A stretch of 64,000 bases of DNA, from the IMG/VR virus record IMGVR_UViG_3300004369_000643, positions 38,595 to 102,594 of that record, one strand, 5' to 3'. Numbering within the stretch: the first letter of the stretch is position 1; every line of letters begins with the position of its first letter. This document shows positions 4,620 through 56,689 of the stretch, in pieces. The stretch is from a virus. Both the position numbers and the translations under genes were made by a program. The notes beneath the pieces are model-generated. The model saw only the letters and a program-made list of their open reading frames with translations, was not told the DNA's origin and searched no databases.

Positions 4620-5565
4620 CTCTTCGTGGCGTTCTCTGTCCACGCCAATCAATAATCTTTCCCCAGATGAAGCATTAATATTTAGTAAGTCTGATTATTC
4701 CGTTGTACTTAATCCCGTTTACGTTTGGGATACATTTCAGAAGAAGTTTGTAGAAGTTGAAGATCGTTACTGTACTGGTAGGTATGTAACTGACGCATTG
4801 GCTGATAGTGGTATGCGTCAAGAAAACTGGGAAGTTGTTAAAGATCGTTATGTTATCGTTCCAAACTCAGATATTTTAGAGCGAGCAACTACTATTGCAG
4901 ATGCGTTTAATGGCTCGGCTCATTTAGATAGTTGTGGCAGTCTAGATAACGGTAGAAAGTTTTTTGTTGCAATATTTACAGGGACTTTTGAGATTATAGG
5001 CTCTGGGGACAAAGATATGATTGATACTTATGTCATTGCTATGACTTCACATGACGGCTCGGTTCCCGTTTGTTATTACAATTTAGATGTCCGCAGGAGA
5101 AACAATTCTGTTTACAGGTTCTTTGATGAAAGTGCTGATTTTTGTATACGTAAGCGGCACACCCCTAATCATGCAGATCGGGATAGTGAGGTTACTGAAG
5201 TTTTAACCATGCGTCAAATGTGGAGTATGTCGTTTAAATCTACTTTAAATAAATTGCTTTCACCTTTATCAGAGTCGCAGTTTGAAACTGTTTTAAATTC
5301 TCAGTGGAACCCTAATACAGCATCTTCTAAAAGCAAACGTGATCACGCAGAAAATGTTATTGATACAATCAATTCGCTGTATAGGTCTGACTACAATTTC
5401 GGAATGTTTGGTCACAGCAAGTGGGCAGCGTTTAATGCTATTTGTGAATACATCGATTTCCACAGGGATATTCCCGGCTTGGAAGCGGCGCAGCATTCTT
5501 TAGAGATTGATAACTTTAGTCATCGTTTAAAGTTATCTCTGTATAAAGAGTTACGTTCTGTTTAG
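4609..5565 (+). CDS. DUF932-family phage/plasmid protein
   Basis: VVKDRYVIVPN, GSLDNGRKFF, TSHDGS, RHT and KWAAFNAICEYIDF motifs; start uncertain (4579 or 4609). Confidence 0.7.
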   Translation: MTGNSSWRSLSTPINNLSPDEALIFSKSDYSVVLNPVYVWDTFQKKFVEVEDRYCTGRYVTDALADSGMRQENWEVVKDRYVIVPNSDILERATTIADAFNGSAHLDSCGSLDNGRKFFVAIFTGTFEIIGSGDKDMIDTYVIAMTSHDGSVPVCYYNLDVRRRNNSVYRFFDESADFCIRKRHTPNHADRDSEVTEVLTMRQMWSMSFKSTLNKLLSPLSESQFETVLNSQWNPNTASSKSKRDHAENVIDTINSLYRSDYNFGMFGHSKWAAFNAICEYIDFHRDIPGLEAAQHSLEIDNFSHRLKLSLYKELRSV

Positions 5566-7353: not shown

Positions 7354-8939
7354 TGGCATGGAACTCTAGTTCAAATAAATCACTTCAATCCGGTATTGAA
7401 GAAAAGCGTGCGCAGGTTTCTGTGGGCGCTCCGGTTGCGTATAGCCCAACTATTCAGGGAAACAATCGTGGTTACCATGATGGTTGGGATATTGTTAAGA
7501 CCTATAAAGAGGCCGTTGCTAAGGTAACATGGGTATATCGCTCCATTGATGTTATTGCTTCCAATCAAGCAAGCCTGCCCATGATTCTCCGCAGGGATAA
7601 CAACCCTTTTGGTGAAATTGTAACTGAAAATCCTATTCTAAAAATTTTCAATAACACTGCTAATATTGGTGAGAATGCTTGGGCATTCAGGTATCGGCTT
7701 AGTTCGCAGTTACTGATGAGCACTAGAGGTGTATTTGTTGAGATAGTGCGCTCTAGGGATGGTACACCGATTGCAATGCATTTGTTACCGCCTCAGAATA
7801 CATCACCAATTCCCGATGTTAAAAACTTTGTTAAGGGCTTTGAAGTCCAAATTACGGCCATGGAAAAGCGAGTCATCAAGCCTAGTGATGTAATTTGGGT
7901 GCGCCGCCCGCATCCCCTTGATCCGTACTTATCCATGACCCCTATGGAGGCGGCTGGTATTGCCATTGAGCAAGAGACTTTGGCTAAGTTGTACAATAGA
8001 AACTTTTTGATTAACGACGGTAGGCCGGGGGGACTACTAGTCTTGCGAAGTGAAATTTCTGAAGAAGACAAAGATGAACTGCGATCAAGATTTAGAGGCA
8101 ATATTGGTAGAGCAGGCGCTGTTGGTGTTATTTCATCAGATGATGGTGCTGATTTTGTAGATACTGCTGCTAGCCCTCGTGATGCTTCGTATCAGCAAAT
8201 GAGAACAATTACTAAGGAAGAAATTTTAGCATCGTTCGGTGTCCCAGAGTCTATTATTGGTAACTCAGCCAACAGAACATTCTCTAATGCTATGGAAGAG
8301 GGTAAGGTTTTCTGGATGGAAACTATGACTCCACATTTGAATCTTATTGCCCGTTCATTTGATGCTATTGATGAATCTTACTTTGTTGACTTTGATACGT
8401 CAAACGTTCCTATTTTGATTTTGTCGAAGCAGGAACGTGAGAAGCATTATTTGTCAGAATTCCAGCAAGGTTTGATTAGCACAAATGAGTATAGAGAATC
8501 CTCTGCTCGTAAGAAAGTTGAGTCTGAGTTGGCTGATTCACTCTTGGCAAATCCAAATCTTACACCTTTGGCTAATACTGAAAAGCCTATGCAGCCTGAA
8601 GGCCAAGAGCAAGGTATGGGTGGTGCTCCCGGTATGGGTGGAATGGATGACATGGCCGGTGGTATGGGGGGTATGGACGGCGGCACTCCTCCGGCTCCTC
8701 GTGATGCGGGCTTTGTTGAAAGTGGTGTACCTCTCCAGCAACAAGCCACCTCAGCATTACAGCAACAAGTCACTGAGTTTAGTCCAGAAGAAGGTGCATT
8801 TGTTCCACTTGGCAATGTTCAGGGGACACAGAGAATTGAAGCACCTGCTAGCGCAGTTCCTAGTGAATTAGATGTGGAGGGTGAGAAGAGCCTCCCTTTA
8901 GAACAAAGACTTCTATTATTGGAGAACCTCCTCTCGTAG
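7353..8939 (+). CDS. HK97-family portal protein with P/G/Q/M-rich C-terminal tail
   Basis: WVYRSIDVIA..ASLP; PLDPYLSMTPMEAA; NFLINDGRPGGLL; EILASFGVPES..G...TFSN; GLISTNEYR. Confidence 0.93.
   Translation: MAWNSSSNKSLQSGIEEKRAQVSVGAPVAYSPTIQGNNRGYHDGWDIVKTYKEAVAKVTWVYRSIDVIASNQASLPMILRRDNNPFGEIVTENPILKIFNNTANIGENAWAFRYRLSSQLLMSTRGVFVEIVRSRDGTPIAMHLLPPQNTSPIPDVKNFVKGFEVQITAMEKRVIKPSDVIWVRRPHPLDPYLSMTPMEAAGIAIEQETLAKLYNRNFLINDGRPGGLLVLRSEISEEDKDELRSRFRGNIGRAGAVGVISSDDGADFVDTAASPRDASYQQMRTITKEEILASFGVPESIIGNSANRTFSNAMEEGKVFWMETMTPHLNLIARSFDAIDESYFVDFDTSNVPILILSKQEREKHYLSEFQQGLISTNEYRESSARKKVESELADSLLANPNLTPLANTEKPMQPEGQEQGMGGAPGMGGMDDMAGGMGGMDGGTPPAPRDAGFVESGVPLQQQATSALQQQVTEFSPEEGAFVPLGNVQGTQRIEAPASAVPSELDVEGEKSLPLEQRLLLLENLLS
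8876..8900 (+). other. Candidate programmed -1 frameshift signal (SD-like GGAGG + C CCT TTA)
   Basis: X XXY YYZ heptamer at 8894-8900 in the portal frame; GGAGG at 8876-8880; the -1 frame is open from 8885 to 9715. Confidence 0.7.
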
Positions 8940-9715
8940 ACGAGTCCGAGTGGAGAACTAAAACACTATACACTGTCAATTCTTTAGAAGAACAATTAAA
9001 CACCGCATTAGACAAAGTTTTTGATGAGCAAGAGCGTGTTGTTCTAGAAGAGTTGAATAGTGACGCCGTTAAAGCCGCTATTGCTAGCGGTTCGGTGCCC
9101 TTAATTATGTCCGCAATTCCCACGACTTTGCTGACTCCCACAACTGTTGGATTAGTTGCTGCTATGCTTGCTTCATATAACAAAGCAGTCACAGATAATG
9201 TTGAAGAGGGATATGGTGCTCCTGTTAGTCAGCAGACGGCAGATGCGGCGGCTTCGGAGCATTTAGCATCAGTAAATAATTTTAATTCAACAACCCAGCA
9301 GGAGGTTGCGTCTGCTTTGGTTGCTGCGTCGCAGTTGTCTGATGAAACTGATGGCGATATTGATATCGCTTTAAAAATTGCTTTGGCTTACTCGCTGATT
9401 AAGGCAGTTTTCAATAAACTCAGAACAAAGCGTAGAAAGTTGATTGTAGATGCTGCCGTACTTGGTACGTATAACCAAGGATTGTATGATTCTGCAACTG
9501 CCGAAGAGCAAAGATCAGGTAGAATTGTTCAGAAGCAGTGGATTTCTTTAATGGATGAGAGAGTTAGGTCTACTCATAGACAGTTACATGGGGATAAAGT
9601 TGCTGTCGGTACGCCTTTTATTGTTGATGGCGTGTCCATTAGATTCCCTAAAGACCCTTTGGCTCCTCCCGGTTTGACTATTAACTGCCGTTGCGTTTTA
9701 CGCTTCAGCAGGTAG
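8885..9715 (+). CDS. MuF (SPP1 gp7 / Phage_Mu_F)-like minor head domain, probably expressed as a portal fusion
   Basis: KQWISLMDERVRSTHRQLHG...PFIVDG..RFPKDP.APPGLTINCRC. The frame is open from 8885 with no ATG/GTG/TTG until a weak TTG at 9053. Confidence 0.85.
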   Translation, partial: EEPPFRTKTSIIGEPPLVDESEWRTKTLYTVNSLEEQLNTALDKVFDEQERVVLEELNSDAVKAAIASGSVPLIMSAIPTTLLTPTTVGLVAAMLASYNKAVTDNVEEGYGAPVSQQTADAAASEHLASVNNFNSTTQQEVASALVAASQLSDETDGDIDIALKIALAYSLIKAVFNKLRTKRRKLIVDAAVLGTYNQGLYDSATAEEQRSGRIVQKQWISLMDERVRSTHRQLHGDKVAVGTPFIVDGVSIRFPKDPLAPPGLTINCRCVLRFSR

Positions 9716-9806: not shown

Positions 9807-11372
9807 ATGACTGTTGCAGAACTAAATGACACCGAGCAAGATACCAGATTTAAGGCTATTTCAGGTCAGATTGGTATTGACAAGGCTCAGGGGATCGTAG
9901 AAGCGTTTGTTTCTGGTATTGGCAATAAAGATTCTGTCGGAGATATCGTTGTTGCTGGTGCCTTCAATGGTTCGCTCAAGCGTCGCAAACCACGAGTTGT
10001 TTGGGGGCACGACTGGAATCAACCCATTGGTAAAGTTATAGAGATTTATGAAGTCCCAAAGACTGATCCGAGATTGCCTGATAAGATGAAGCAGGCTGGT
10101 GTTGGCGGTTTGTTTGCAAAGGTTCAGTTCAATCTCAATACTGAGCGTGGACGTGAAGCATTTGCTAACGTAGCGTTTTACGGTAATGAGCAAGAGTGGT
10201 CAATCGGTTATAAGACCATTACTGCAGATTTTGATGCAGTTAAGCAGGCTAACGTTCTCAGAGAAGTAGAGTTGTATGAGATTTCTCCTGTCCTGCACGG
10301 AGCAAACCAGTTAACTGCAACTATCTCAGTAAAGGATGATGAAAAGGGCAAGGAGTCCAAAGGTTGGCAATCAGGTGACGACGACAAAGACGGGCCTGCC
10401 AGCAATATGGATGCGATGTCAGAGCGGCTGGGGCGTATGCTATCTCAGGCGCTAGGTAAGCCCGTTCAGATTATTCAAGCAGACGGAAATAATGTTGTAT
10501 TTCAAACAGGCGAAGACATGACATGGAGTGCTACCATTTCAGTAGAAAATGGGCAAGTTCAAGTCGGTCGGCCTACACGTGTAAAGCCCACTACAAGTTA
10601 TACCCCTGTTGGGGAGGAAGCGCCACCTTCAATGATGATTAAAGATACTGATGAAAAAAATGCCGAAGAGCCTGCTGGCGTTAGAAACGCTGACAACGAG
10701 CAAGGCTCGTGGGCAACTCCAGATATTGCTTTGGCTTGGTCAAAGACTCTGGGATGCTCAGGTTATCATTCCCACGGTGGAGGCTTTATGCCTTGTGAAA
10801 CCCACGAAGAATACTTAGAGGCTATTAAGAAGTTTGATGGTAATGCTAACATCAACTCCCACAATAATTACCTTGCTGGTGTTGAGGTTGAAGAAGCGAA
10901 AGACGCTGGATGTGGTTGCAGTACTTCCGAAAAGGGTCATGGCTACATGCGTAATGAAAAGCCTGAATATTTGAAAGATCCAATGGCGCTGCTGCTTATG
11001 GCCTATAACGAGATGCTTAAACTACGGGGTGCGGGCGAGTTGCGTGAGGCAACTCTCTCATTAATTGGTGCGGTTGAGAATTTTTTGACCGAAGCACCTA
11101 TGTCTCTTCCAAGTGAGCAGGGCGAGAAAGTAACCTCAGGTTTTGTTGTTCATGTTAAGTGTTCAGAACGTGAGGCTTTAAGTGTTAGTGGTGCTATGTC
11201 GTCACTTCCAGTATTCTCATTCAAGTCGGAAGATGGTGTTGATGTTCACTTCACTACCGAACTTGCGGAAGAAGAACTAATGGAAAAAGTTGCTATTTCG
11301 CTTGCCGGATTAGACTTTGATCCTGAGGTAACAGTAACCAGACCGATTGACACCGATGAAGGTGTTCAGTAA
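9807..11372 (+). CDS. HK97-type prohead protease (S78) with long C-terminal extension
   Basis: DSVGDIVVAGAF; WGHDW (His); WSIGY (Ser); LYEISPVLHGAN (Glu); SD GAGGAG. Confidence 0.92.
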   Translation: MTVAELNDTEQDTRFKAISGQIGIDKAQGIVEAFVSGIGNKDSVGDIVVAGAFNGSLKRRKPRVVWGHDWNQPIGKVIEIYEVPKTDPRLPDKMKQAGVGGLFAKVQFNLNTERGREAFANVAFYGNEQEWSIGYKTITADFDAVKQANVLREVELYEISPVLHGANQLTATISVKDDEKGKESKGWQSGDDDKDGPASNMDAMSERLGRMLSQALGKPVQIIQADGNNVVFQTGEDMTWSATISVENGQVQVGRPTRVKPTTSYTPVGEEAPPSMMIKDTDEKNAEEPAGVRNADNEQGSWATPDIALAWSKTLGCSGYHSHGGGFMPCETHEEYLEAIKKFDGNANINSHNNYLAGVEVEEAKDAGCGCSTSEKGHGYMRNEKPEYLKDPMALLLMAYNEMLKLRGAGELREATLSLIGAVENFLTEAPMSLPSEQGEKVTSGFVVHVKCSEREALSVSGAMSSLPVFSFKSEDGVDVHFTTELAEEELMEKVAISLAGLDFDPEVTVTRPIDTDEGVQ

Positions 11373-11402
11373 GATATTCTCTATAAGGATACAGGAGTAA
11401 AA

Positions 11403-13205
11403 ATGAGTGATAACCTTAATGAAGACCTTCAGAAGATGGAAGCCCTGAGCGAAGTCATTGATTCTGGGGAAAGCATGTCTGCCGAAGAAAAGGGTATGCA
11501 TGATATGAAGAAGAATGCGCCATCAGTTTTTATGACTGATATTCGTTTCAAGGAGTCCATGGAGGCCGGTGATTTGCTTACCGAAGAAGCCTATATGTCT
11601 TTGGATGCGGATGATCAGAAGGGCTATGAAATGGTTCAAGTAATGGATGAAAAGACCAAAGAGCCTATGGGTTGGGTTTTCCGCTTTAAGTCTGATGAAG
11701 ATGATGGCGAAGAGGCTGTTGAAGAGGCTGTCGAAGAGGCTGTCGAAGAGGCTGTTGAAGAGAAGTCAGAGACTTCAGATATTTCTGAAAAAGCGGCTGC
11801 TCTCATGGCACAAATGCGTTCAACTGATGATGATAAACCATCAATGTTCTTAACTGATGCTCGGTTTAAGGAAATGATGGAAGACGGAGAACTAGTTTCC
11901 TCTGAAGATTATGACGGTCTTGATGAAGACGCTAAGGGTGCTTACGAGGCTGTTGAAGTTTACGAAGAGGGTACCGGCAAGGGTTATGGTATGCGTTACC
12001 GCCGCCGCAGTCCTCTTGAGTTGACTTCAATGCGTAAGGGTCAGCACATGGACGAGAAGGCTGATGACGGTATGGAAGACATGTTTGATTCAGAAGAAGA
12101 AGCACTTGAGCGTGCGGCTACTCTGGGTTGTGAAGGCGTTCATCGTGCCGGTGAGAAGTTTATGCCTTGTGCATCACACGATGATTGGATGAAGTTGAGC
12201 AAGCCTGCAGAAGAAGAAGCACCCGCTCCTGCTGCCCCTGCTGCTCCTTCTGCTCCTGCTGCTCCTGCAGACGCTGGCATGAAGTCAGAAGAAGAGTTCC
12301 TTTGTGGATTCCAGCGTAAGTCAGTTACGCAATCATGTGAATTTTGCTCAGGTGGTTGCGCACCGCAAGACGGTCTACCCGGATTGGCTGATATTGAGAA
12401 TCAAGTTAAGTCAGATTATGAGGGTTCTGAGATCATTAGTTCAGGATACTCTGCAGGTGACGACGTTTTCGTTGTAGACGTTAAGCGTGCTGATGGATCA
12501 TTCATTGAAGTGTTCTTGACCGGTGAAGGTGAAGAACTAGGATGGTTGCGTTTAGATGAGAGTGCAATTGAGGGCAAGTCCGCTGAAGCAATTGAAGTTG
12601 TTTCTAAGTCAGACGCTGAATTGACAGCATCAAAAGCCATTAGCGACATGGGAATTAAGGCTGAAGTCATGAGTGTTACCGTTGACATCTTCGCAGACGA
12701 AGATGTTTATGTTGTGGAACTTGATGCGGAAGAGAAGAGTTACGATGTGTTCATTTCAGCAGACGGCAAGGTTCTAGGCTACGATGAATATGAGTACGAC
12801 ACTCCTGCCTCATATGAACTTTCTGAAGAGGAAGAGATTAAGGCAATTGAAGCCGAACTAGAAATTAAGCGGATGTACTCTCGTGAACAGCGTGAGGCTA
12901 TGGCTGAATCTGGTGAGGCTCTTCCCGACGGATCATTCCCCATTGCGGACGAAGCCGACCTTAGTAATGCTATCCAAGCACTCGGACGTGCGTCTGATCC
13001 AGAAGCGGCTAAGGCACACATTATGAAGCGTGCTACAGAACTTAAGTTAGAGGATATGATCCCTTCAGATTGGAGCGATGGTGATTCACCTGCTCCAGCA
13101 TCTGCACCAAAAGAAACAGACGCAGAAGAGAAGGGTTTGGACGAAGATATCCTTAAAGCAATGGAAGAGTTCAATAGCCTTTTGGAAAGTGACGAACTTT
13201 CTTGA
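11403..13205 (+). CDS. Acidic modular head-associated (scaffold/internal) protein
   Basis: Internal ~58-aa duplication; GCxGxH..MPC motif; PepSY-like repeats; PDGSFPI...NAIQA module; lies between protease and capsid. Confidence 0.65.
   Translation: MSDNLNEDLQKMEALSEVIDSGESMSAEEKGMHDMKKNAPSVFMTDIRFKESMEAGDLLTEEAYMSLDADDQKGYEMVQVMDEKTKEPMGWVFRFKSDEDDGEEAVEEAVEEAVEEAVEEKSETSDISEKAAALMAQMRSTDDDKPSMFLTDARFKEMMEDGELVSSEDYDGLDEDAKGAYEAVEVYEEGTGKGYGMRYRRRSPLELTSMRKGQHMDEKADDGMEDMFDSEEEALERAATLGCEGVHRAGEKFMPCASHDDWMKLSKPAEEEAPAPAAPAAPSAPAAPADAGMKSEEEFLCGFQRKSVTQSCEFCSGGCAPQDGLPGLADIENQVKSDYEGSEIISSGYSAGDDVFVVDVKRADGSFIEVFLTGEGEELGWLRLDESAIEGKSAEAIEVVSKSDAELTASKAISDMGIKAEVMSVTVDIFADEDVYVVELDAEEKSYDVFISADGKVLGYDEYEYDTPASYELSEEEEIKAIEAELEIKRMYSREQREAMAESGEALPDGSFPIADEADLSNAIQALGRASDPEAAKAHIMKRATELKLEDMIPSDWSDGDSPAPASAPKETDAEEKGLDEDILKAMEEFNSLLESDELS
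11709..11762 (+). repeat. 12-bp coding tandem repeat (EEAV x4.5)
   Basis: GAAGAGGCTGTY x4 + GAAGAG. Confidence 0.9.
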
Positions 13206-38806: not shown

Positions 38807-39322
38807 ATGAGTACAGAAGAAAATGACATCATTGAGGTTGCAGGTTCCGCACCTGCCGCCGCACAAAAGAAGGCTAGTAAGGTTACCCTGCTGGATCAGT
38901 TGAAGTCGGAAATTTCTAAGGAAGTTACACGTCCTGAAATTGAGATTCCTATTCCTGAGCGTAGGGGCGTTACTGTTCGTTACTCCCCTAACATTACTAA
39001 TGAGCAGTTGAAGGCTTGGCGGCGCAACTCTACCAACAGAAAGACTGAGGAACTTGATTCTATTAAGTTCTCTTGTTATGTTGTCGGTCAGACGGTGACT
39101 GGTATTTACTTTAACGGCGAGTTGGTTTTGGATGACGATGGTAATGCAATTACTTTCGCATCTGGCGTTGTTATGGAGATGACTGAAACTGATCGTCCTT
39201 TGCCTGACGCCATTCGGGCGTTCTTCGCTGTTGACCCTCACCTTGAGAGCACCGCTCTTAAGATTCTTGACCATGCTGGTTATGGTGATGAAGTTGACAT
39301 GGAGGACCCTACGAAGGGCTAG
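38807..39322 (+). CDS. Tail assembly chaperone (gpG-like)
   Basis: Between tube and tape measure; ends ...EDPTKG. Confidence 0.75.
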   Translation: MSTEENDIIEVAGSAPAAAQKKASKVTLLDQLKSEISKEVTRPEIEIPIPERRGVTVRYSPNITNEQLKAWRRNSTNRKTEELDSIKFSCYVVGQTVTGIYFNGELVLDDDGNAITFASGVVMEMTETDRPLPDAIRAFFAVDPHLESTALKILDHAGYGDEVDMEDPTKG

Positions 39323-39573: not shown

Positions 39574-42500
39574 ATGGCTGAGGCAAGAGAAAAAGTTGTA
39601 ATTGAGGTTGAGATCGATGCTGATATCAGTAACGATCTTGCTGGTATTGAGCGTAGACTGAAAGCGTTGGAGGATCGTCAGAGGGCGTTGAATCGTGCGA
39701 CTCGTGGTGCTTCTGATGCTAATCGTGATTTTGATGCCAGTGGCCGAAGTTTAAGAAAAACTGTTGATTCCAAGACTCAAAGGTTTCAACGTTTTGAAAG
39801 TGTATTAAAGCGTTTTGGTCGTGGACTTCAGAAGGTTACAGGCTTTTTACAAAAGTTTTTGATGACTTTTTCAAAGTTGTCGTTTATTGCTATTGCTGCT
39901 GAAGTTGCTTTGTTTACTGCAGGCTTGCTGGCTGTTAAAGCGTTGCTTGTAACGGGTAGGGTTGCAGTAAAGGGTTATAATTTAGCGCTTAAAGGTTTGT
40001 CTGTTACTGCTACGGCTGTTGCTACAGGTTTGGCTGTTGCTGCTGCGGCTATTAGAGAATTTCAGGAAGTTCAACTTTCTCCGTTCTTTGGTGGAGGTCG
40101 TCAGGGTGCTCGTGGTGCCCGCCAGTTGAATCGTAGTATTACTTCACAGACTCGTTCTTTGTTGGGTGAGTCAACTGGTGCTATTGCTGGGTCTTTAGGT
40201 CAGGCCGGTGTTGCACGTGGTAATGCACTAGCAACGCAGTTGTTTAATCTTACTGGTGGCGACGCTAAGGCGGCACAGTCGTTGGCTGCTGCGTTTGCTT
40301 CTGCTAAAAAGTCAGGTAATACTGCTGGTCTTGTCACTTCGTTGCAGGGTGCTCAGGGATTCCGTAAAGATTCTATTTCCAGTGGGGCGACGCTTTCTAG
40401 CATTATTGGTACTGTTTCATCCGGCGGTGCTACTGCTGACGCATTTCAGGGTGTGGCGCAAGATATGGCGGCAACGTTTATTGGTACGTTGAAGTCTGAG
40501 GCGGAGTCTTTTAAAACTATTTTTGCTACTATTGGTGAGCCGTTGCTTGCACCTTTCCGTGATTCGTTTGTACAGATTAGCCGTATCATTAAGAATGATG
40601 TGTTGGGCATTGCTCAGATTATGCGTGATTTTGGCCCTGATTCTATGGCTCCGGCGTTGGTTGGTTTTGTTGATGCTATCGGTGAGTTTGTGCGTTCTAA
40701 TATCGTTAATAATGTCAGTGATATTGCTGGGGCTGCTGATAAGTTTATTGATTTCTTTAGGTCTGTCGGTAATTTCTTCACTGGTTTTGGTGATTGGTTG
40801 CGTAGTTATGAGGGTGCCGCTAATGTAGTTATTGACATGTTGAAGGCCATGTTTGGTAGGTCGGCTGGTGGGCTGTTTCGTGATTTTGCTAATTTGATTG
40901 AAGATAATAGAGAAACTTTTGTTGGTTTTGGTGATGCTATTGGTAACGTGCTTAATGCTATTAAGAATGGCTTTCTTTCGGGGCAGCGTGGATTTTTTGC
41001 TTCGCTTCCTAGGTTGACGAATACCCTTAATGTGGTTGCCACTAGTGTGTTACCTAATCTATTCGAGGTGTTTGGTGCTATTGCTCCGCTGTTTGAGAGT
41101 TTCCCTGAATTAATTCGTAATGTTTCTGAAAAGTTAGGGCCTATGCTTGTCCGTATCTTTGAGGCGATGAAACCTATTTTTGATAAGTTACCTGAAGCGT
41201 TTAGCGGCTTGATGAAGGTTTTATCTGCTCTTGAGCCTGTCATCATGTTGTTGATTAAAGCAGTTGATCTGCTTATGTCTGCTTTAGGTTCAATTCCGCT
41301 TATCGGAAATATGCTGATGGGTGGCGGTATGGTTTATATGCTTGGCGGTAAAACGGGTGGAGCCTTTTTAAACAAGTTTGGTGGCCGTACTGGTAGGGCT
41401 GTTGCTTCTACTAGTCGTAATATTCGTTCCTCTGCAGAGGCTGGTGCCGGTAGATTAGCAGCCAGTGGCCGTATGGGTAGAGCGGGCGCAGCCGCAGATG
41501 ACATTATTTTGCGTATGGCTGAATCACGTAATCCTGCTATTCGTGGTATGGGTAATACACTCTTAAACAACTTCAGAACCACTGCTTCGGGTTCGGGTTT
41601 AACCGGCGCACTTCAAAAATATTTGACTACTGGTGAAGCAGGATCAGTTTCGCTTCGTGGTTTCTTATCTGGTCAATCAGATAAGATTTTTAAAACAAAC
41701 GGGTTTAGCAGATTGCAACAATTTGGTTTTAATGCTCGTTTAACCAATGGTAGAGCATTTATGCCACTGTCATTTCGTGGTAATCCTTTAACCTACCCGA
41801 TTACAGGTAATCAAGTACATGCATTTAGGATTCCTCAAATGACTATGCCGGGTCAAAGAATGAACCAAACCATGTTAAGCGGAATTCAAAAATATAATGC
41901 TGCTAAGGGCAGGTTCCCACGTGTATCCGCAGGTAACGTTGCTAGTAAGGCTTTTGGTGGAATTGCTGCCTATCAGACTATTGGCGATTTGATGGACGGC
42001 CAATTATATAATAAGGCTGCTGAGAATCCGTTGGGTGCTGCACTTCAATATGGTGGTGCTGCGTCTTTAGTTGGTGGCGGAGCGTTAGTTGGTGGTGCTA
42101 CGGCAGCAGTTGGTTCTGTTGCTAACATTAATAGATATGGTGCTAGTATTGGTAATGTTGGTACCGGTTTGTTAGGTGCCGCCGTTGCTGGTGGCTCGCT
42201 GTTAGGCCCTGCTGGAGCGATTGGTGCAGTTCTTGTTACTGGTATAAGCATGGCGATTTCTAGTTATGCTAGGGGTAAAAGGATTAGGAAAAATGCGGAA
42301 GAAATGGGTGATTCACTTTTGTCCGGCATTGCTGATGCATTTAAAGGCGGTGAAATTAAAAATGGTCTTACGGATGTTCAACGAAACACTTTTTCTAGCC
42401 TATTTGAAGCGGGTATGGCTGCTCAGCAGGCCGGTACAAATGATAAATTAGAAATGACTGAGGGCGACACTCGGGCTATGCGTGAGTTTATTTTAGAGGC

Positions 42501-56585: not shown

Positions 56586-56669
56586 GCCCCCGTGGCGGAA
56601 TAGGCATACGCAGGAGACTTAAAATCTCTGGCCCGTAAGGGCTTGTGGGTTCAAATCCCACCGGGGGTA
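56586..56669 (+). tRNA. trnL: tRNA-Leu, anticodon TAA (no encoded CCA)
   Basis: Acceptor GCCCCCG/CGGGGGT; anticodon arm GGAGA-CTTAAAA-TCTCT; long variable arm GCCC-GTAA-GGGC; T arm GTGGG-TTCAAAT-CCCAC; promoter TTGCGT-17-TATACT upstream. Confidence 0.95.
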
Positions 56670-56689
56670 CTGTTACTGAAAGGAGTATT

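Follow-up and report, generated by a model that had tools for sequence, protein, structure and literature searches.

In the structural genes of tailed phages, conserved recoding is textbook knowledge for the tail assembly chaperone pair, and a few capsid and tail proteins are further known cases. In the chaperone pair, a -1 frameshift gives G and GT in lambda, and most long-tailed phages have such a shift (Xu, Hendrix and Duda 2004, as cited in PMC7302621 and PMC7911831). In the head module, in-frame fusions of the portal protein to a MuF head protein have been described in Microbacterium phages of clusters EA3, EA5, EA8 and EB (PMC7302621). Among the -1 slippery heptamers assayed in E. coli, those of the class H_HH.U_UU.Y, including C_CC.U_UU.U and C_CC.U_UU.C, are among the most efficient, and C_CC.U_UU.A, which E. 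coli genes avoid, shifts at more than 0.1% with no stimulator present; Shine-Dalgarno (SD)-like stimulators of -1 shifting have been demonstrated, and searched for, at spacings of 6-17 nucleotides (nt) from the heptamer (PMC4066793). Here, we analyzed a stretch of 64,000 nt (the window) that forms part of a 102.6-kb uncultured virus record (IMG/VR record IMGVR_UViG_3300004369_000643), from a phage of 44% guanine plus cytosine (GC) content, and focused on the junction between its portal gene and the MuF frame downstream. Comparison of this junction with related sequences leads us to consider it very probable that the 3' end of the portal gene carries a programmed -1 ribosomal frameshift and that MuF is made as an extension of the portal protein, without a start codon of its own.

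The portal of the window is assigned to the HK97-type phage portals by PF04860, with 166.6 bits against a cut-off of 39.1, and the C-terminal third of the protein consists of a low-complexity Gly/Met/Pro-rich linker and a variable tail. The linker, GMGGAPGMGGMDDMAGGMGGMDGG at 8590-8700 (portal residues about 415-450), is rich in Gly, Met, Pro and Ala and lies between the portal core and the C-terminal tail; a Pro/Gly/Ala-rich linker occurs at the equivalent place in relatives in which portal and MuF are fused in frame. The MuF frame lies at -1 relative to the portal frame. It is open from 8885, the TGA at 8882-8884 being the stop immediately before, to a stop at 9713-9715, and it overlaps the portal frame by 55 nt (17 codons). 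No single open frame spans both domains in the window, where the portal frame stops at 8937-8939 and MuF follows in -1. The translated -1 open reading frame (ORF) matches PF04233 (Phage_Mu_F) at its residues 180-272 with 42.4 bits (cut-off 29.6) and phrog_2468 at an E value of 4.7e-25. Both genes meet in one further profile, the 717-position 'portal' profile phrog_2662, whose positions 36-470 are matched by the portal of the window and whose positions 490-707 are matched by the -1 ORF, and which therefore models fused proteins.

The overlap of the two frames holds the heptamer C CCT TTA, with a GGAGG 13 nt upstream, and the MuF frame has no ATG, GTG or TTG before TTG 9053, which is the 57th codon from its opening. 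All of these positions, including the opening of the MuF frame at 8885, had been given in a preliminary description of the locus made from the sequence alone, and they were confirmed here. A -1 shift on the heptamer gives a computed transframe product of 516 + 271 = 787 amino acids (aa), with ...EGEKSLPL before the junction and RTKTS... after it. In one genome such a heptamer is unremarkable: the chance of any X XXY YYZ pattern within a 17-codon overlap is ~6%, and the long ORFs of the window contain 80 in-frame heptamers, two of them CCCTTTA. The case therefore rests on conservation in relatives.

No match at the DNA level was obtained when the region was compared by blastn with cultured phages. 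Relatives were gathered from IMG/VR via protein patterns, and 80 loci with portals 66-87% identical to that of the window were kept; a scan of IMG/VR with the conserved DNA pattern described below gave 50 contigs. To keep the motif out of the selection, junctions of the -1 type were chosen only by the tblastn frames of their portal and MuF matches, which gave 37 distinct junctions with portals 66-87% and MuFs 35-78% identical to those of the window. The pattern GAGG[GA]T-RR-N9-CCCTTT was present in 37/37 of these -1-type junctions. The initial proposal, made on the window only, of a programmed -1 shift at C CCU UUA fusing portal to MuF is thus supported by comparison of homologues, in which both the heptamer and the -1 overlap are conserved. 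Counts of the block, of the frames and of the A-site codon were taken from a motif-selected set of 42 distinct junctions (600-nt segments).

The same comparison bears on whether the broken frame could be an artefact, a concern raised when the locus was first described. The window comes from an uncultured virus contig, in which an assembly or sequencing indel, or a pseudogene, might account for the change of frame. We regard this explanation as extremely improbable, as the identical frame relation recurs in the 37 distinct junctions from many metagenomes, and the MuF frame is intact everywhere. Positions 8300-9500 are also reproduced without difference or gap in Logan contigs of two runs, at depths of 29 and 21; these two further assemblies show no indel at the junction, as contigs rather than raw reads, and both runs belong to one study and are possibly the source samples.

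With the 42 distinct junctions aligned at the heptamer, little or no variation is seen from position -17 to position +5, and both flanks fall below 1 bit. Within this block, GAGG(G) is invariant at -17 to -13, about 12-13 nt from the heptamer, which agrees with the earlier view that the signal includes an SD-like element upstream. T stands at position -12 in every case, and positions -11 and -10 read GA, AG or AA, never GG. At this point the -1 frame has a stop in all related junctions (TGA, TAG or TAA), and the portal codon there is GAG, AGG or AAG, never GGG. GAAGAG at -9 to -4 is invariant though it lies outside the pattern used for selection, and CCCTTT is invariant as well, followed by a seventh base that is T in 32 junctions, A in 9 and C in 1. 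The shortest overlap among the relatives, 19 nt in locus L032, has the heptamer as its only slippery pattern.

The conservation of this block is not matched by the synonymous sites of the rest of the gene. Across the 42 distinct portal genes, 218 columns of the alignment hold a single amino acid for which there is a choice of codons, and only 2 of the 218 are also invariant in codon, namely E509 (GAG) and P515 (CCT), which both belong to the block. Two further codons of the block, GGT for Gly and AAG for Lys, likewise do not vary wherever the residue is kept. Elsewhere, the commonest codon in columns with an invariant residue accounts for 43-67% on average, and synonymous sites are well mixed. 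Codon invariance is therefore confined to the block in a way that indicates selection on the RNA and not only on the protein, and the heptamer is conserved among diverged homologues with synonymous variation suppressed around it. These data also speak to an explanation in which the block is mainly a protein motif, E-G-x-K-S-x-P-F/L, such as a site for the prohead protease, with MuF expressed in some other way or decaying. The residues are indeed conserved and a protease gene follows, yet GAG, GGT, AAG and CCT never vary where other invariant residues use several codons, and all 42 junctions have an intact MuF under purifying selection, so that we hold a protein motif very unlikely to be the main cause of the conservation. 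A cleavage site would not preclude a frameshift signal, and the two may coexist.

The MuF side of the junction is conserved as protein from well upstream of any start codon. In the 42 junctions, the -1 frame is open for at least 133 codons, and in the relatives the portal frame ends 3-15 codons from the CCT codon of the heptamer with a variable sequence. The first ATG, GTG or TTG of the MuF frame is scattered among the relatives from codon +17 to codon +77, and no start position is conserved. Alignment with phrog_2468 begins at residue 31 of the open -1 frame and with phrog_2662 at residue 36, and homology to the MuF profiles and to in-frame fusions begins 20-35 codons before TTG 9053, in keeping with the earlier suggestion that the 56 codons ahead of this TTG encode real protein. 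TTG 9053 itself was considered as the MuF start and rejected, since it lies inside a conserved block without a properly spaced SD and is not conserved among relatives. Its Leu is the final residue of F-D-E-Q-E-R-V-V-L-E-E-L, a stretch aligned with FERQQRVVLE, which is invariant in in-frame fusions; lying within this conserved, fusion-aligned block, the TTG therefore cannot be the natural N-terminus. A conserved Met ~90 codons into the -1 frame was also tried as an internal start and rejected, as no SD precedes it and the fusions have L, M, V or I at the aligned position. The protein collection does not contain the -1 ORF as read from its opening, and gene callers cut MuF short at an arbitrary internal start, by which the annotation of these phages is affected.

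Relatives in which the two proteins are joined in a single frame, whose existence had been expected when the locus was first described, were recovered by searching for longer relatives of the -1 ORF. This search gave 14 clusters of in-frame portal-MuF proteins of 726-768 aa from metagenomes (P0003-P0016). One of these in-frame fusions, P0003, is 67% identical to the portal of the window over 420 residues, and its C-terminal half shows 36% identity with the -1 ORF, in an alignment that starts at residue 22 of the ORF and reaches its end. Conceptual transframe products of the frameshift-type loci align with the in-frame fusions from the shift site onward. The nearest cultured phages are fused in frame as well: gp7 of Brevibacterium phage Cantare (793 aa) and gp18 of Gordonia phage DalanDe (923 aa) have ~40% portal identity to the window, and both carry PF04860 and PF04233.

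Against this background, the alternative of two overlapping genes, with MuF initiated separately at TTG 9053, ATG 9107 or ATG 9164 and with an incidental heptamer, appears unlikely to us. The TTG and several ATGs do occur in frame, the Pfam MuF domain lies downstream of all candidate starts, and loci L040-42 and L046-48 among the relatives have a separate MuF led by an ATG. An independent start in homologues had been named at the outset as an outcome that would speak against a frameshift; six loci with MuF in the +1 frame have an ATG of this kind, and no start is conserved in junctions of the -1 type. Separate initiation is further opposed by the absence of any conserved start position, by the place of TTG 9053 described above, and by protein-level conservation of the -1 frame, with changes at synonymous sites, well ahead of all the candidate starts. 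It also leaves the 23-nt block, frozen at its synonymous sites, unexplained.

In the frameshift that we propose, most ribosomes would pass C CCU UUA without a change of frame and terminate 13 codons on, yielding the 528-aa portal. Some ribosomes would slip back by one base on the heptamer, their tRNAs re-pairing from CCU UUA to CCC UUU, and this slip would be aided by the SD-like GGAGGG about 12-13 nt upstream, which is predicted to pair with the 3' end of 16S rRNA; the spacing falls within the range of 6-17 nt given for such stimulators. The shifted ribosomes would continue in the -1 frame to 9715, producing a portal-MuF fusion of 787 aa. Lacking its own start, MuF would then reach the procapsid only as a C-terminal extension of some of the twelve portal subunits, facing the head interior. 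Portal C-termini lie on the capsid-interior side in SPP1 and in HK97-type portals, and proteins of the gp7 type bind the portal in a few copies in SPP1. Occasional extension by MuF would put a few MuF copies at the portal vertex inside the head, and it is a reasonable inference that the fusion is a minority product that sets the copy number of MuF.

Several observations weigh against this reading or limit what can be expected of it. The UUA variant of the window belongs to the less efficient class in E. coli (PMC4066793). The strength of the interaction with the anti-SD sequence is assumed. The 60 nt after the heptamer in the window fold no better than chance (z -0.27 against shuffles), and the 70-nt segments of the 42 junctions have a mean z of -0.35 and no common fold. 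The small hairpins pointed out downstream in the preliminary description thus exist as sequence, but their folding is at chance level and they are not conserved. A pairing of GGAGG with CCTCC across the block, possible in the window, was rejected, as relatives have GCGCCCC or GTGCCCC there. No hairpin or pseudoknot was found 5-9 nt past the heptamer, an element that is not obligatory for this class of sites and that lambda G/GT lacks; with no conserved downstream structure, modest efficiency is therefore expected, as at the lambda G/GT site. The conserved E-G-x-K-S residues could serve a role at the protein level, for example as a protease site, which would explain part of the conservation but not its synonymous part. 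Finally, one relative known from a single 5.2-kb contig (L057, positions 4800-4900) keeps GGAGGGTAAG...C CCT TTA with MuF in the zero frame, and its -1 frame closes after six codons, so that a slip there would yield a short portal and not a fusion; this could be a real flip of the layout or a contig or homopolymer error.

A slip could in principle take place during transcription and not during translation, with RNA polymerase slipping on the T run and the fusion read from an edited mRNA. In the majority form, CCCTTTT, this run counts four T's, and it reaches five in a few relatives. Known transcriptional realignment sites, however, are longer homopolymers of A or T (reviewed in PMC5009743), the window and 8 other junctions have TTT only, and the invariant CCC and the SD-like element would have no role. 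We therefore judge polymerase slippage highly improbable and retain ribosomal slippage as the reading of the junction.

The preliminary description further held that the UUA codon in the A site, read by a tRNA-Leu(UAA) of the phage itself, could tune the ratio of the two products. This idea did not hold up: the A-site codon is UUU in 32 of the 42 junctions, UUC in 1 and UUA in 9, and with UUU at most A sites, a role of UUA and tRNA-Leu(UAA) cannot be general. Three UUA-type contigs of at least 90 kb (the record of the window, G001 and G007) do carry a tRNA-Leu(UAA), G007 along with Lys(UUU), Ser(UGA), Arg(UCU) and Thr(UGU) tRNAs, all of which read A-ending codons; a UUA-type contig of 41 kb shows only tRNA-Arg(UCU), and the single large UUU-type contig has tRNA-Glu(CUC). 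The tRNA-Leu of G001 is 75 nt long and has only its 3' 27 nt in common with that of the window, at 96% identity. A link between tRNA-Leu(UAA) and the UUA heptamer was rejected, as the sample is too small and confounded by relatedness and TTA is a major Leu codon, accounting for 27% of the Leu codons in the long ORFs of the window. The simpler reading is that general codon supply for a phage of 44% GC better explains the tRNA-Leu(UAA), because the other tRNAs of related contigs also read A-ending codons and TTA is common.

Beyond the frameshift itself, one may picture a fuller scheme, which we put forward as speculative and on balance doubtful, in which shift efficiency would set how many of the twelve subunits bear MuF, the prohead protease would cut after assembly, between K and S of the conserved E-G-x-K-S directly ahead of the shift site, and free MuF inside the head, the arrangement would have arisen more than once, and tRNA-Leu(UAA) could modulate the ratio in phages of the UUA type. 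If true, this would amount to a cargo-loading scheme resembling that of Gag-Pol for tailed phages.

Relatives that lack the cassette offer a contrast with those that have it. The six loci with MuF in the +1 frame (L040-42 and L046-48) have an ATG overlapping the portal stop and neither the heptamer nor the GGAGGG block. About fifteen loci (L052, L058-L069, L074 and L075) are without MuF; their portal ends in ...VPSESAL just before the position of the block, and the protease gene follows directly after the portal. No PF04233 was found elsewhere in four of these MuF-less relatives, whose contigs are 33-45% complete. As far as sequence layouts can tell, the cassette is present exactly where MuF would need it, and loci whose MuF has a start of its own, or which have no MuF, are without it. 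In a tree of portal domains (FastTree, midpoint-rooted, indicative only), the in-frame fusions fall outside the clade that holds all cassette-bearing sequences, and nested within this clade lie L057 and the forms with an ATG-led MuF or with none. The simplest history would run from an in-frame fusion through a single origin of the frameshift-linked layout to later losses. One family may thus show a series from in-frame fusion through frameshift-linked genes to a separate gene or its loss, with the portal tree as an indicative guide.

The coordinates of the junction and of the other features that we considered are collected in Table 1.

Table 1 Positions of the portal-MuF junction, its proposed recoding signal and other features in the window
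Feature	Position	Strand	Profile or remark
Portal gene, zero frame, 528 aa	7353-8939	+	PF04860, phrog_2662
SD-like GGAGGG, proposed upstream stimulator	8876-8881	+	GGAGG 8876-8880, 13 nt before heptamer
Conserved 23-nt recoding block GAGGGT-RR-GAAGAG-YNN-CCCTTT	8877-8899	+	
TGA, -1 frame stop that bounds the MuF frame on its upstream side; the P-site codon after the shift, CCC, comes four codons later	8882-8884	+	
Slippery heptamer C CCU UUA (candidate shift site); portal-frame codons CCT, TTA	8894-8900	+	
Part of the predicted transframe product in the -1 frame, 271 aa: linker, then MuF/gp7-like head morphogenesis protein	8900-9715	+	
Zero-frame portal tail after the shift site, EQRLLLLENLLS, then stop (8937-8939)	8901-8939	+	
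Prohead protease (S78) fusion gene, next in the head module	9807-11372	+	PF04586, phrog_80
tRNA-Leu(UAA), 85 nt	56586-56670		

Outside the head module, the window contains a likely tail assembly chaperone pair, formed by an ORF at 38807-39322 and a -1 frame extension to about 39530, and closely followed by a gene for 1357 aa at 39574, a putative tape measure gene. The overlap of the chaperone pair is 25 nt (39298-39322) and contains no X XXY YYZ heptamer; it reads GGAGGA CCC TAC GAA GGG C TAG, in which only the tetramer C_CCU is available, beside the SD-like GGAGGA.

The host may be an aquatic or salt-marsh actinobacterium, a suggestion made because the nearest cultured portals come from phages of Brevibacterium and Gordonia. 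DUF3721 domains, however, occur at 9807-13205, and their usual place is in marine cyanobacteria and the phages of these. A comparison of the portal with genome contigs, in which prophage copies and thereby the host were sought, found none. Contigs of a salt-marsh metatranscriptome match the portal at 99% or more, covering only 8385-8535 and 8630-8780 with the junction outside, which hints that a near-identical phage is active, or that its DNA is present, in a second habitat and study.

What is new lies not in the proposed mechanism, which is canonical, but in the pair of genes and the use made of it. Literature searches, full text included, gave no publication that describes a portal frameshift, and the word 'portal' does not occur in the accessible part of the text of a 2016 recoding review. 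If the fusion is real, it would explain how a MuF without a start codon is expressed across a clade of aquatic phages, and it would provide a simple mechanism by which a sub-stoichiometric protein of the head interior is loaded via the portal vertex.

As to the signal, the closest likeness is to dnaX of E. coli, which gives tau and gamma, and to insertion sequences of the IS3/IS911 type, with which the junction shares an X XXY YYZ site for tandem slippage, an SD-like element ~10-14 nt upstream and conservation at synonymous sites. In dnaX the heptamer is A AAA AAG, a strong stem-loop lies downstream and the shift gives the shorter product, whereas the window has C CCU UUN as its site type and no conserved downstream structure, and its shifted product would be longer by a whole protein. 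As to the placing of the signal, the junction resembles the lambda G/GT tail assembly chaperone in having a conserved -1 shift in a structural module that would give a minor, C-terminally extended form of an abundant protein; in both, one gene end would set a fixed ratio of two products, and G/GT too is often without strong RNA structure. In contrast to G/GT, the shift would act at the head and not the tail stage and on a different gene pair, and the extension belongs to PF04233, an independent and widely distributed family of head proteins encoded by a separate gene in most phages.

As to the product, the order of PF04860 and then PF04233 is that of the in-frame fusions of actinobacteriophages, which have ~730-920 aa compared with 787 aa here. 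In those fusions every portal subunit carries MuF, whereas here only shifted ribosomes would make the fusion. By profile, MuF of the window belongs to one family with the minor head proteins gp7 of SPP1 and gpF of Mu; in SPP1 and Mu, the MuF protein is the product of a separate gene with its own start, and here it would be tethered to the portal by translation. The nearest parallel in design lies with Gag-Pol of retroviruses and Ty elements, in which a sub-stoichiometric cargo likewise enters the capsid because translation now and then fuses it to a structural protein; the proteins and the host translation systems are unrelated, and the likeness is one of design only.

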